IMG/VR virus record: IMGVR_UViG_2521172734_000008
Location: 1 to 21,054 of that record
Direction: 5' to 3' (one strand)
Length of the DNA: 21,054 nucleotides
DNA from: a virus
Taxonomy: Duplodnaviria; Heunggongvirae; Uroviricota; Caudoviricetes
Position numbers: made by a program. Positions 12,001 to 18,000 of this stretch are shown here, piece after piece; position 1 is the first letter of the stretch, and every line of letters starts with the position of its first letter.

Positions 12001-15000
12001 GCCGAGTTCATCACCTGGTGTACAAGCGAAGGCATTGGAATCAATGCCGAAGGTAGAATGCAGTTCGCATCCTTTAAGGCTTACCAACAACTTCTCAGCG
12101 AACGCTAATGTGATCGGGGCAATCGAAATGGTTGTCCCATCGTATTTAATAGTTATTTTTTCGCTCATATCACCACCATCACTTCCCATCTTCCGTGTGC
12201 GCTAGGCTTGGGTGTGTATATGGAATGCTCGGATCCAAATGACAAAGAATGGCAACATCCTCCGGAACACCTCGCGTTTTCCACTTTCCAACACCTTGAC
12301 TGCCACGAGGCCTTCCTTTCTTTGGGAACCTGCGACCAATAGCGGCATTGGTTTTAAATTGAATTTTTAATATTTCATAAAGGGTCATTCTTTAGTCTCA
12401 CACCAGATACTTTGTTATCCAACGATGTTAACCACAGGAATCCAAAGTATCAAGAAATTCTGTTACTTTAGTATCAACAACCATGAGAGGAGAAGAAAAA
12501 TGAAGTCTTTAGGTGAACGTCTCATCAACGCACGGCAAAAAGCTGGGTTAACACAAGATGCGTTGGCTAAAAAAGCTGGGATCACCAGAGTTGCAATCAG
12601 TAAAGCCGAGCAAGGCCTTACAAAAAGTTTCAACGGTGACACCCTTTTTAAAGTTGCAGCTGCACTGCGGTGTTCACCGCAGTGGCTTCAGAACGGAGAT
12701 GAAAAAGATAAGCATTGGGAAAATAATGTTAAGAGCTGCCCACAGAGAGACACAGCACACTCTTACCCTGTAATTAACTGGGTTCAGGCAGGATTATTCG
12801 CAACTTCTGGTGATGACTACAACATGTATGATCAGGATAATTGGAGGCATTCTGTAAAATACGCTGGTGAGAGGGGGTTCTGGCTGGAAGTGCACGGAGA
12901 CTCAATGACTTCGCCCGTAGGAATAACATTTCCTGAAGGAATGTCGATCCTTGTCAACCCAGATAAAGAAGTTTTTTCAGGGTGTTACGTCATCGCCAGA
13001 AAAAAATCCACCAATGAAGCAACATTCAAAAAATATATTTCTGACATGGGAAAGGCGTTTCTAAAGCCCCTTAATCCACAATATCCAATCATAGAAATGG
13101 ACAATGATTGCGAAATAGTAGGTGTTGTGGTTGATGCCAGGTGGGATATTTTCTGACCAGACACAAAACACAAAACACAAAAAGAAACCAAAGTATCAAA
13201 AATCACTTGCCACACCTTGATACCTTAGTTACCATAAAACAAAGTTCGTAACTGAGGTATCATCTCATGATCAATAAAGCTACAACTCTTGACTGTCTCG
13301 AAGAACTGAAAAACCTCGGCAGCCTCATTACACTAATAGCAAAAGCAACACCTGATGCTACGCTCTCTAGCGATATAGAGTCATGCGCAGGGCTGGCATG
13401 GGATATGACAAATAGCATATCCAGAAAGCTATCGTCAGCAATGCTTTTACAGAATAAAAATTCTGCAATCAACAACCGTCTTCGCACCCAACGCGAAGCC
13501 TGCGGCTTAACAACCGCCGAACTCGCCAGGCTGCTCGATCTCGATGAAGAAATTATCATCCAGTGGGAGAGCGGAGAGTATGAACCAACTATCAGTATGC
13601 TTATCCCACTGGCAAATATTCTTGGCTGCGATCCGATGTGGCTGTTAACTGGTAAACCAACAGGTGGGGATACTTGCGCATGAAAAACTGTGATGCTTAC
13701 CATATTTGTCTCATTGGTGAATTGCTTGATTTCATACAAAAAAGCACTGCGCGCAATAATAAAAATATAACATATGGTGATCTGGTAATAATTTCAGAGG
13801 ATATAAAGAGCATCGCTCTTAAATTCAAGAGCGACGCGAGTATTGATGACGCTATTTACGCTTATCTTGCGAAAATAATTGACGGATCCAAAATCCAGCC
13901 TCTGGATGAACCTCGTCAGTGAAAAACTCCTTTGATGAAGATGAGAACTGCTTCATAAACTTTACTTTATCTTCAGGTGAAACTACCTGACGAATTAATG
14001 CGGAGATAGCAACTTTGTGCCAAATTAATTCTTTTTTGAGTTCTGAAATCTCTTTTTCGAGTTGCTCTGCGTTAATCATTTATCCTCCATTGAGAGCTGA
14101 ATTGAAAATGGGGACCAACACGCGGCTACGTGTGGTCGTGCGCCGGACACGGATAAGCATCCGGTAACTGATTATCAATCATTGCGGAAACAGTCTCAAT
14201 ATGAAAACACTTCTGAGACTCGCTATATAGCAGGACATATAAGTCAGCTGAGGAAGCCATGAAAAAGTTCGAAAACATAACTGTTCTCCATGTTGATGAC
14301 TTTGATTATACAAACCCGGAACTTCTCCCGGAGGTTGTAAAGGCAATAGATGTTGCCGATATAGTGATTAGAGAAAAGAGAATTGTCAAAAACAGGCTCG
14401 CATGCACTTCAGGAGCAATGACAGAAACAACCTCACAGCAAGATAATTACGAAGGCATTTGTCTGGAGCCTGATTCATTTGCGGTAAATGTTTATCATTT
14501 ATTGCATGCAACACAGGTATTACATATGTCCAGTAATCACGAAACGAAAACACTCGGCAGCGAAATTCTGAGTTTTGCATGTGAGTATACAAAAGCTGCT
14601 GCCGAAAAAGAATTAGCGCAATAACAACAAATATGCCCTGAACGTTTATTGCGGTTTTATCGCCGGGGATTGTTACAACCTTAATCCACAGGAGGCTTTA
14701 TTGTGACTTTTATAAAGAATATGGCATCACACAAGACCGCCTGCCTTATTGCACAATACGGTGAAAATTACATGCATATTGCCTGCTTATTTCTGCGTAA
14801 AGCATACGGGAGATAATAATGCATCAGAAAACAGCAGAACACGAACAAACCAGAGTATTGCTGACCATCAAAAACGGGAAAGTAATATTCATTCGCCATG
14901 TTCATGACGATGAACTTGTAGGAACTCTTTCAACATTCCTGTTTATTGCAGAAAGGGCAGGATATGACGTTATTGCACCAGCAGATGAAGATGAAGATGA

Positions 15001-18000
15001 AGATGAAGATGAAGATGAAGATGAGGAATAAATATCATGCAATACGATGAATTCCAGGCTGAAGCAACAGCCAATGGTATACGAACTGGCAGTATGACGA
15101 TTGATTATCACGACGCCATACGTCGTCTGGATGCCGGAGAATTCGATACTCCTAATGTGCGAGGTTTACGTATCCTTCAGTGTCTGGCGCAAGCCGACGA
15201 AGCAGGATTACTGGGTAAACTTCCGGTTGAGATGAAGGTTGCTCAGTGGCGATGGTTGTATGTGACGACATTCATCAACGAAGAAGAAGACAAGAACGGC
15301 ACAATTGATATCTTGAATGAACACGGAACAACTGAACACGCCGTGGTATATAACGGGATGTATGGGTTTATGACGATATATCCCGGCCCCATTCGATTTG
15401 CCTTACAACAGTATATTGAATGGAATTTAATTCAAAAATACGGCGAAGCTGAAGGAATGGGAAGAGCGCTGTTTCTTTATCAGAAAATGCTCACTACTTC
15501 CCCTGATAAAGGTTTCATTCTTTCAGATATGGGTCGAGAAGGGCTTGAAATCCTTCTGGATGAAATTATTAACGAAATGAATACTCATGGCATGCAATCC
15601 GAAACAGATATTAAGTAAAAGGGACCACATGACCGTTATCGAGCATATCCAGGAAAATCCAGATTGCAGTAGAGAAGATATATCCCTCGCACTTGGAAGA
15701 AGCGCAACTTCTATCAGTAATGAATTATCACGGTTATTGTGGAATGGGTTAATAGTACGAACTGGAGAAAAAAACAAAATGATTCTGTACTGCGTAAACA
15801 ATCTGCCGTTTGGATACAGCAATCCCCTAAGTGTTATGTTCAACCAGTGATAGTGATGTTCCGACAGGAGAGAGCAGAGAAAGGGGAATCAGCATGAAAT
15901 TTTCCAAATTTTCTGAGTTGGTGAATCGTATTTTGTCCAACAACCACAGCCATCGTCGCGATATGGATGTAACGATCGTTGTTCATTCGCCTGGCAGCAT
16001 TGGTTCAACACCCTCAGTTGAAGTTCAGTCAATTCACGCTGGTTTTGATTGGGATTCCGGGAAAGTGCTGATTTTCCCAGCACAGCCACTGACCACTCTA
16101 ACACCAGAACAGATTACTGATATTACTGATAGTGTGCGCAAAGGTCAGTCCTGGCACGCATATCAGGAATACAAGAAGCATAAAGAGCAGTTGGAAAAAT
16201 TATCGATTGAACTTGATGCCGCAAAACAGCGCATTGCAGAGCTGGAGGGTAATTTCACGGCGCTGGCAGCGGAGAATGCGGGGCTAAAGGCGATATGTGA
16301 TGACCGTCGCAGGTTCATCATGAATGGGGTGCAGATGGGTTATATCAAGGTGCCAGCAGCGGAAACAGATCCAGACCTTGAGACAATTCGCATTGCTATA
16401 TCACCACAAAAGCCCATTCCAGCCACCGATGCTTTCCTGGCTGAAGTACGGGCGCAGGGCGTGGAGATGTTTGCGGAGTGTGCATACACGCTTGAACATC
16501 ATGATCACGCAGTAGCCTTCGCCGCTGAGCTTCGCAAAGGAGGCAACCAGTGAGCAAGATTGACTATCAAGAACTGCGCGAGGCGGCGGAACAGGCAACG
16601 CAAGATGAATGGGTAGCATATATTTTGCCGGGTCATAACGGCATTTATCCTGCGCGCACGTCTGAGGGTAGGCATTGCGGATACTTTATTGACTGGCCTG
16701 GCGTCTGTCAGGGGCGGGAGAGCATCAACATGAGCATCAGAACCTACGCAGTGAATTGCAATGACGCATGGCTAAACACCGAAGGTGATGACATCTCCGG
16801 CTCATACGTTAAGTACAAAGACCATCAGGAAGTGGTTGCCGCTCTTGAGGCCAAGTGCGCGGCGCTGGCAGCGGAGAATGCGGGAATAAAGTCTGCAATT
16901 CCAGAATCACGGGATATTGAAGATGACAATGACAATATGGATGACGTATCTCTCGCGGAAGACTTCGGGTTCAATCATGCAATAGAACGGATGAGGAGAC
17001 AGATACCTGAAACGCCAACCACTGATGCTTTCCTGGCTGAAGTCCGGGCGCAGGGGGTGGATGCTGCTATAGAAGCTGCAAAAAATCTGGTGGCCCAAGA
17101 ATATGAGTATAAGGATTTCAAAGCGGCGCAGAGTGATTGCTGTATGTACCCTGGTTCAGACCTGGTAGGGAAGGTTGAAATGACTGAGTGGTTAGTTGAC
17201 TTTGCTGCCCAGCTTCGCAAAGGAGGCAACCAGTGAGCGAAATTAATTACCAGGCACTGCGTGAGGTGGCGGAACGTGCAATTCCAGCAATGGAACGCCT
17301 GTTAATGTTGCCAGCTGATGATGACTTGTTAAGTGAACAGGAACTTAAAGATTACGGTGTGGATATTGATGCGCTCAACGCCTTCAAATTTCTGACCGGA
17401 CCAGAAACCGTGCTGGCACTGCTGGATGAACGGGAAAGAAACCTGCAATACATCAAAAGCCGCGATCAGGAGAACGAGGATATTGCGCTAACGGTAGGGA
17501 AGCTGCGCGTTGAGCTTGAAGCAGAAAAACAGCGGGCAAAAGTTCTATTTATGGAAAATGCTCGGCTTAAGTCAGGCATAGCCGGTCTGATACACCTCGG
17601 TATTCGATATGCAGATGTTGAGGTCATGAAAATTGCTGGAGATGCCCAGCTTTCTACCCCATGCACTGACAGCATCATAAACAGCATTGCAACAGGCATT
17701 CGCATCAAAGGAGAGTGATATGGCGTTAACACACCACGAACTCTGTCAGATTGCGTACAAGTTCCTTAAGCGCAACGGGTTCAAGGTTTGCTTTCATGAC
17801 CGCTTTGTTGCTGTAACCAGTACCGGAGAACAGCCAGATGCTATGGGATTCAGAAATTCAGCATCATGCCTGATAGAGGCGAAGTGTTCTCGTGCTGACT
17901 TGTTGGCAGATAGAAAAAAGCGTTTCCGTAAAAATCCCTCACTTGGCATGGGCGACTGGCGATTCTTTATTAGTGAGCCGGAAATTATTTCAGTTGAGGA

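Follow-up and report, generated by a model that had tools for sequence, protein, structure and literature searches.

We analyzed a stretch of 21,054 nucleotides (positions 1 to 21,054 of the virus record IMGVR_UViG_2521172734_000008; hereafter the window), which is part of a lambdoid, Shiga toxin (Stx) phage-like Escherichia coli prophage. Our subject is a block of 2.2 kb between the repressor gene and the Ea22-like genes. The plus strand carries a long run of genes from the repressor to the integrase, and therefore we took it as the early-left (pL) direction. A preliminary description had seen here six genes of no recognisable family and had proposed that they form one autonomously regulated defence or exclusion module. 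Calling of open reading frames (ORFs) recovered all six where they had been placed, the early-left location was borne out, and the 179-bp divergent gap between the genes for proteins of 75 and 121 amino acids (aa) is real (14080-14258). There are more than six genes, as a seventh conserved ORF of 37 aa had been overlooked (14703-14816). We refer to the plus-strand genes as o121, o37, o70, o193 (after the length of their products) and wHTH (winged helix-turn-helix). The 75-aa gene runs on the opposite strand and is preceded by a conserved structured leader of about 90 nucleotides (nt).

Our results suggest that the block is mosaic, being built of units that assort independently within a pL operon of the phiP27/Stx-phage type, and that the counter-oriented gene is one of these units, a moron. 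We estimate the probability of this reading as approximately 0.55. The nearest phage records were PhiR49_2 of ECOR13 (98% identity) and phiP27 (91%, left half); Stx1 and Stx2 phages integrated at yecE matched the right half of the window with 90-93% identity. Five of the ORFs have counterparts in phiP27, namely L09, L08, L07, L06 and one unannotated ORF, and the phiP27 record lists these four genes as 'unknown'. The segment L10-L09-L08 was approximately 91% identical in DNA. At the protein level the direct homologs in phiP27 were 98% (L10), 96% (L08), 76% (L09), 53% (L07) and 65% (L06) identical. With the Stx phages the common part was limited to o37-o70-o193, with or without wHTH, and the corresponding early-left hypothetical proteins of Stx1 phages were 92-95% identical to those of the window. 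In PhiR49_2, which is inducible and whose flanks are 98% identical, a deletion removes the counter-oriented ORF together with the leader. The prophage studied here, unlike phiP27 and the Stx phages, combines a phiP27-type left part with a Stx-phage-type right part and has an expanded repeat coding for aspartate and glutamate (DE). At least 80% of the interval 13200-15900 was held by 19 of the 5,426 complete E. coli genomes. The sub-blocks are thus shared separately with phiP27, the Stx phages and PhiR49_2, and we did not find the single island that had been proposed. Nor does it form one cassette. The set o37-o70-o193 is found again in phages of E. coli; an Aeromonas phage has o37 and o193, and a Klebsiella phage has o70 and o193. 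Since these genes are conserved, in differing combinations, in phages of three genera, they are not strain-variable cargo. The anatomy of the block, its conservation pattern, its lack of known homologs and the distribution of the leader were observed directly. The coordinates are collected in Table 1.

Table 1. Features of the block and of the remaining part of the window
Feature	Coordinates	Strand	Remarks
Inferred oL/pL	13186..13262	.	GTATCA-type repeats, inverted pair TGATACCTYAGTTAC, promoter-like site
Promoter-like TTGCCA-17-TACCAT	13207-13235		pL candidate
138-aa HTH_3 protein (phiP27 L10)	13267..13683	+	First gene after the putative pL; heads the operon, outside the flagged block
80-aa ORF (82 aa from 13674)	13674/13680-13922	+	phrog_23054
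Terminator-like 12-bp hairpin, then UCUUUAUAU (U-rich tail)	13810..13837	-	15 nt after the stop codon of the 75-aa gene
75-aa gene (phiP27 L09)	13852..14079	-	phrog_20080; cargo of the putative moron in this prophage
Conserved structured leader, ~90 nt	14077..14167	-	Covariance model 96.8 bits, E 2e-22
Promoter-like TTGAGA-17-GATAAT	14171..14199	-	10/12 matches; ends ~4 nt before the leader
o121, 121-aa acidic protein (phiP27 L08)	14259..14624	+	phrog_5451
o37, 37-aa basic micro-protein	14703..14816	+	GTG start, AGGAGG Shine-Dalgarno sequence
o70, 70-aa acidic protein	14819..15031	+	phrog_340; phiP27 L07 53% identical
(GAAGAT)x7 perfect tandem repeat	14983..15024	+	Encodes the (DE)7 tail of o70
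o193, 193-aa acidic protein	15037..15618	+	phrog_1515; phiP27 L06 65% identical
wHTH, 73-aa MarR-like winged-helix protein (87 aa from 15587)	15587/15629-15850	+	phrog_1687; 73-aa start as in Stx1 phages
S24/HTH repressor (cI)	12425-13156	+	
Integrase	19741-21054	+	Last of the long plus-strand gene run after the repressor
Q antiterminator	4687-5085	-
OmpC-type porin gene, low-GC	3356-4498	+	GC 0.32 just upstream
Three tRNAs	2348-2590
STnc100	2077-2267
NanS-p-like esterase	1-1854	-
Chi sites	5445, 5574, 5845, 6197, 6847, 8988, 9660, 9760, 11632, 19320		8 on -

The counter-oriented gene looks like a self-contained moron (13810-14199, minus strand) composed of a promoter-like site of the sigma-70 kind, the leader, a Shine-Dalgarno (SD) sequence, the ORF and a terminator hairpin. 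The proposed autonomy fits this gene and not the rest of the block, and the strong SD that had been ascribed to it is present as GGAGG at the end of the leader. Substitutions in the 75-aa ORF, as compared with phiP27, were distributed over codon positions as 2/5/15, which supports coding. Among collinear relatives the unit is absent from PhiR49_2 and from the Stx1 and Stx2 phages. Morons of lambdoid phages are autonomous promoter-gene-terminator units, such as lambda bor and lom or those of HK97 and HK022. The present unit resembles them, and also sieB and ymfI, in being a single small gene with promoter-like and terminator-like signals of its own which lies within a phage operon and is present or absent among relatives. 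In K-12 both sieB of Rac and ymfI of e14 are counter-oriented inside early-left operons (locus coordinates 8672-9160 and 5498-5839, respectively), and the gene of the window is likewise oriented against pL. The difference from the lambdoid morons is that here one structured leader is common to at least nine unrelated classes of cargo. Our literature searches, none of which was aimed at this point, found no description of a leader shared between morons. These observations suggest that the counter-oriented unit is the sole reasonable exclusion candidate of the block. The 75-aa protein had no match in Pfam and hence none to the SieB model.

Several further observations concern this unit. We rejected a type I toxin-antitoxin system, as the 75-aa protein is hydrophilic (isoelectric point, pI, 8.0) and has no toxin-like hydrophobic stretch. 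No LexA box was seen by eye at the promoter of the putative moron. In phiP27 (locus 5256-5553) a T-run is longer by 1 nt than in the window. The extra nucleotide shortens the annotated L09 ORF to 60 aa, and it represents a genuine frameshift or else a mistake of the old sequencing. Both sieB and ymfI are preceded by a similar CACCAC...GGTGGT hairpin, which is unrelated to the leader studied here.

The leader is present in the window in a single copy, as judged by the covariance model. It consists of a stable 5'-terminal hairpin A, a hairpin B, a U-rich stretch with complementarity to the SD/AUG region, the SD GGAGG and the ATG. The interval 14079-14171 matched approximately 700 records of complete E. 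coli genomes with 80-90% identity, and nothing was annotated there. In O157:H7 EC4115 the same leader precedes a different minus-strand gene of 69 aa, and in phage phiSTEC1589-Stx1c an unannotated ORF of 96 aa. An exact 24-mer of the leader occurred at 120 or more loci of IMG/VR. Among the matches listed, nine classes of small ORFs (57-101 aa; cargoes of 61, 64, 69, 75, 80, 94, 96 and 100 aa among them) followed the leader, with the joint precisely at their start codon. They belong to at least seven families at the PHROG level. One of the classes resembles GhoS/DUF2622, and another one, related to it and 100 aa long, is homologous to YmfI of e14. Behind the ORFs of the other classes lie separate hairpins, in some cases with a U-run after them. 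The same leader stands before unrelated small ORFs at equivalent places of E. coli prophages and therefore marks a site of cargo exchange; all cargoes are probably expressed in the same manner because of it. PADLOC gave no match for the 75-aa cargo, the one cargo scanned. The leader has no family in Rfam. The covariance model did not find it in PhiR49_2 or the Stx phages, and neither this model nor BLAST found it before sieB of Rac or ymfI of e14.

Two known arrangements can be compared with this one. Variable hotspots holding anti-phage systems are reported for P2-like phages and P4-like satellites (PMC9122126). The likeness lies in a fixed site with a conserved flank, at which unrelated cargo alternates among related prophages. 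The difference is that in our case each cargo is one ORF of 57-101 aa and not a multi-gene system, and that the flank is a transcribed leader and not core genes. The second arrangement is dicBF of the Qin prophage, whose ydfC-dicF spacer has 88-94% identity to hairpin A and to the sequence that lies upstream of the O157-type leader. In O157 the leader sits between repressor-side genes and dicF/dicB. Qin differs in having no counter-oriented ORF, hairpin B or SD, and the window in having no dicF or dicB. Hairpin A and the O157-type promoter region form part of the ydfC-dicF spacer (Qin locus 19073-19136; EC4115 locus 4060-4600), and O157 carries the counter-oriented gene in place of ydfC, upstream of dicF/dicB.

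A consensus structure of the leader was obtained with RNAalifold from 25 distinct leaders, which are closely related sequences. The fold has three helices with 21 pairs: A, which is the 5'-terminal hairpin, B and C. Helix C pairs CUCCAUU with AAUGGAG of the ribosome-binding site. In this alignment 98.3% of cells were paired, as compared with 24-47% when the partners were slid. Hairpin B showed two compensatory pairs with G-U intermediates, a number reached in 7 of 500 shuffles. The G-U pairs in hairpins A and B form on the minus-strand RNA only. Folding z-scores were -1.7 to -2.9 for the minus strand and -1.1 to -1.8 for the plus strand. Two unrelated promoter-like sequences, TTGAGA-17-GATAAT in the window and TTTTCA-17-TAAACT in the O157 type, lie by reading at an equal distance from hairpin A. 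The promoter scan found the site of the window only, and the O157-type site was picked by eye from listed sequences. The SD and its spacing were invariant before unrelated cargo ORFs.

The genes on the plus strand are arranged differently. The 110-bp gap after cI has GTATCA-type repeats in common with the cro-cI gap, and we infer that the gap between cI and the L10 homolog is oL/pL under the control of CI. The scan found no terminator-like sites on the plus strand between 13100 and 15950. As the plus-strand genes lie behind putative CI operators without such sites, they would be shut off in the lysogen, and genes silent in the lysogen would be ill-suited to constitutive prophage defence. They are probably early lytic genes, and not a defence expressed in the lysogen. 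The 138-aa protein encoded first matched Pfam HTH_3 with 43.8 bits; in Stx1 phages a double-HTH regulator of 216 aa has an N-terminal half that is 77% identical to it. The start of the 80-aa ORF overlaps the stop codon of this gene (ATGA), and the frame is intact in phiP27. We are uncertain whether this ORF is a real gene. Its substitutions as compared with phiP27 (10 synonymous and 12 non-synonymous) had a weak codon-position bias, it overlaps the convergent 75-aa gene and its terminator-like hairpin, and PGAP does not call it in strain 100416.

Two repeated sequences were observed in the same region. A perfect tandem repeat, (ACACAAA)x3, lies at 13161-13182 between the stop codon of the repressor and the putative oL operators. 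The motif TGATA-N4-5-GTTAC has three copies (13218-13232, 13248-13262 and 14164-14177), and 0.07 would be expected. Two inverted copies flank the -10/+1 region of the candidate pL, and the third lies on the -10/+1 region of the putative promoter of the counter-oriented gene. The motif may serve both promoters as an operator, perhaps one bound by the L10-like HTH protein. We did not rely on it as a CI-like operator of the moron promoter, as it was picked post hoc and its third copy is altered in phiP27.

The acidic proteins o70, o193 and o121 have pI of 4.2, 4.6 and 5.0 and net charges of -16, -14 and -8, respectively. Residues 57-121 of o121 correspond to stand-alone proteins of 66-68 aa of Stx phages. 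AlphaFold2 modelled o121 poorly (predicted local distance difference test, pLDDT, 68), with a linker that is disordered and a helical hairpin at the C-terminus. This hairpin is the stand-alone Stx-phage protein. The internal codon Met54, at which a promoter-like site (14418-14447) begins, is the annotated start of a 68-aa product in several genomes. Identity of the micro-protein o37 to its homologs was 92% for Stx phages, 73% for phiP27 and 54% for both Escherichia phage CharmingMan and Aeromonas phage AsXd-1. The (DE)7 tail of o70 is present as had been described, and it turned out to be a local expansion of the GAAGAT repeat. The Stx1 phage has a gap of 30 bp at this place, the length of the tail varies among homologs, and most of them have a single DEDEE (an ADEDEE end). 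The search for o70 homologs was dominated by low-complexity DE words. Weak profile matches of o70 to Ant-type anti-repressors (phrog_4792, E 2e-6; phrog_2379, E 1e-3) covered 42-47 residues and C-terminal parts only. BLASTP showed no similarity between o70 and the Ant-like neighbour of an o193 homolog.

The substitutions in o193 fell on codon positions as 10/10/24 in the phiP27/Stx1 phage comparison, again in support of coding. Its family, searched among 1.8 billion representatives, made up approximately 100 clusters (50% identity). The AlphaFold model was confident (pLDDT 87.7; predicted TM-score 0.84), and Foldseek found no structural relative of it in BFVD or the Protein Data Bank (PDB). 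The invariant residues are mostly structural, with no conserved catalytic motif. We observed homologs in early-left operons of temperate phages of E. coli, Klebsiella and Aeromonas, often beside genes of Ant-type anti-repressors, and also in P4-like elements, where they adjoin the primase gene. In P4-like elements of IMG/VR (locus 4001-4970) the o193 homolog is followed by a family of 114-154 aa and then by the primase gene, and one database protein of 336 aa (P0072) fuses the o193 homolog with this family. Distant homologs gave no informative domain fusion: P0151 was a spurious match to a repeat protein, and P0101 and P0072 resemble read-through into neighbour genes.

The last gene had been described as coding for a winged-helix-like protein, and as the third member of a tight trio with o70 and o193. 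The first point held for the DNA-binding core, on which profile matches of the 73-aa protein were consistent in Pfam, PHROG and NCBIfam. PHROG 1687 ('MarR family') matched with E 4e-20, and residues 8-71 of the 87-aa ORF matched eight wHTH models of Pfam and the Sta1 and Lrs14 models of NCBIfam. All scores in Pfam were under the respective thresholds (MarR_2, 23.1 bits with a cut-off of 27; MarR, 15 bits with a cut-off of 24.6). The likeness to MarR regulators extends over residues 11-62 of the 87-aa ORF (profiles MarR_2, HTH_24 and HTH_27); the difference is that the 73-aa protein, judged by its length, is a winged-helix core without the MarR dimerisation helices. The second point has to be changed, as the gene is not a constant member. 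Stx1 phages have it; in a yecE Stx2 phage no such gene is annotated behind o193, and a tblastn search of the phiP27 locus yielded no copy. The linked set is o37-o70-o193.

These data allow a mechanism to be proposed. The genes o121, o37, o70, o193 and wHTH would be co-transcribed from the CI-controlled pL and would give early lytic proteins. The small and mostly acidic early proteins may bind proteins of the host or of co-resident elements soon after induction, in the manner of take-over or derepression. The moron would be transcribed in the lysogen, while pL is repressed, and its mRNA would be stabilised by the 5' hairpins of the leader. After induction, transcription converging from pL would turn it off, both through collision and through antisense pairing. 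The cargoes would be proteins of benefit to the lysogen, of the sieB kind. In a joint form, which we put forward only tentatively, the leader would define an undescribed cargo-exchange site of E. coli lambdoid prophages and be a portable, promoter-proximal RNA module with a 5' stabiliser hairpin and a partly occluded ribosome-binding site. It would serve exchangeable, lysogen-expressed small proteins (nine classes so far, the YmfI/GhoS-like ones among them), of which at least some would be single-gene superinfection-exclusion or anti-phage factors turned off by pL read-through at induction, and o193 would represent a new fold family. Such an early-protein fold family, founded by o193, would be common to temperate phages and P4-like satellites. 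For every gene described here, function and expression are deduced from sequence and context.

Several points weigh against this interpretation. Promoters and terminators were called by match to a consensus, and as many calls were obtained in shuffled sequence as in this region. A promoter-like site, ATGACA-18-GATAAT (10/12 matches; 14418-14447, plus strand), lies within o121 and could uncouple the trio from pL. The functions proposed for the early proteins are drawn from composition and context only. Covariation in the leader is thin, the leaders are closely related, and the search pattern had fixed hairpin A in advance. For helix C we saw no compensatory change, and single sequences do not have it in their minimum-energy fold. 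Outside E. coli-type prophages the leader was not found; a 19-mer scan that took a single genome for each species produced only chance hits, which lay in GC-rich taxa. Finally, a part of the leader was also found in the ydfC-dicF spacer of K-12 Qin and in the Stx2 phage of O104:H4 (P13374), in both cases without an intact minus-strand gene. Because of such remnants the leader could serve a plus-strand transcript or be a recombination scar.

It is possible, if rather doubtful, that the leader does not function as an RNA in its own right and is a linker of shared sequence at a gene boundary, kept because lambdoid prophages repeatedly use it for homologous recombination, or that it acts on the plus strand in a transcript from pL or of the dicBF type. 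The homology ends exactly at the start codon, as at other mosaic joints of lambdoid phages, and the remnants in Qin and P13374, the low covariation and the moderately stable folds of the plus strand agree with such a view. Against it, the G-U pairs of hairpins A and B and the G-U intermediates pair on the minus-strand RNA only, and the z-scores of this strand are lower. Moreover, two unrelated promoter-like sequences keep their distance to hairpin A, and the SD and its spacing are constant before unrelated ORFs.

The plus-strand genes would be made early after induction, and therefore fit roles in host take-over, anti-defence or regulation better than constitutive defence. We do not think that they form a defence system. 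One special form of an early role is that o70 and o193, perhaps also o121, are anti-defence proteins, i.e. acidic DNA-mimic-like inhibitors of restriction or of DNA-binding immunity proteins. Their strong acidity, their place in the early operon and the lack of a conserved catalytic motif would agree with this, and an orphan fold is found in many anti-defence proteins. The occurrence in P4-like satellites as well as in phages suggests a role in conflict between elements. We nevertheless regard this as unlikely.

That the six genes form one autonomously regulated module for defence or superinfection exclusion, at the position of rexAB, sieB and ral, we find improbable. The position between cI and the Ea22-like genes agrees with it, and so do the one counter-oriented gene with its own signals, the comparable orientation of sieB in K-12 Rac, and the absence of a known family. 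The description of the genes as belonging to no recognisable family was right for Pfam, NCBIfam and PADLOC, where the six proteins gave HTH matches alone, and it needs the addition that each ORF falls in a PHROG of unknown function. No protein of the rexAB, sieB or ral type was found among the six in Pfam or NCBIfam with E up to 0.1. A sequence search of the PDB with five of the proteins gave nothing below E 0.01, and our literature searches found no study of these genes. In Rfam 15 the interval 13600-15900 had no match at the gathering score or with E up to 10, by which DicF or another known small RNA in the divergent gap was ruled out. However, no PADLOC model was matched beyond generic HTH: the 75-, 121-, 70- and 193-aa proteins had no match in PADLOC-DB v2, the 82-aa ORF had one marginal match (E 0.007), and wHTH matched the HTH parts of CARF/CasR models only. 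In addition, the sub-blocks assort independently, the plus-strand genes behind the putative CI operators would be silent in lysogens, and o37, o70 and o193 are conserved across genera and not variable.

It is very improbable that the trio replaces a missing recombination module, with o193 as an unrecognised strand-annealing protein or RecBCD inhibitor. In the window ten Chi sites (GCTGGTGG) were observed and 0.6 were expected, and eight of the ten lie on the minus strand. Among the early-left ORFs scanned, with those between 17687 and 19700 outside the scan, there was no gene for a single-strand annealing protein, an exonuclease, a single-strand DNA-binding protein or an anti-RecBCD protein (comparison set: exo/bet/gam, erf/abc, recET and sak). 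This combination argues against o193 or o70 as a Gam-like inhibitor of RecBCD. A Chi-rich lambdoid class with 'no Rec module' was described by Zheng et al. 2025 (PMC12315714), and the prophage fits this class.

Further genes lie in the remaining part of the window. The minus strand carries a cro-like gene, replication genes (O-like, DnaC-like and DnaB), two genes of the Rha family, the Q antiterminator gene and the gene of a NanS-p-like esterase. Positions 1-5085 form a late region resembling that of Stx phages. In the gap of approximately 220 bp between STnc100 (2077) and the esterase gene (1854), which is the place of stx in Stx phages, there was no ORF of stxA length; stx was not searched for directly. 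Rfam matches to the C4 antisense RNA (82 bits) and isrK (62 bits) at 10634-10822 (minus strand) fall inside or beside a gene of the Ash/Rha family (10025-10879). This site is a c4-ant immunity element of the P1/P7 type in the rightward early operon.

In summary, if neither the reading of the leader nor that of the trio holds, the region is ordinary lambdoid mosaic DNA rich in ORFans. If the reading of the leader is true, its covariance model would be a sequence handle to collect prophage micro-proteins from E. coli genomes, including those of O157 and O104 pathogens, and the cargoes would become candidates for single-gene exclusion or host-modulating factors. The set o37-o70-o193 is a conserved and uncharacterised part of the early programme in a lambdoid class without recombination genes of its own. 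What this set does matters for the way in which these phages, often Stx-converting ones, begin lytic growth.

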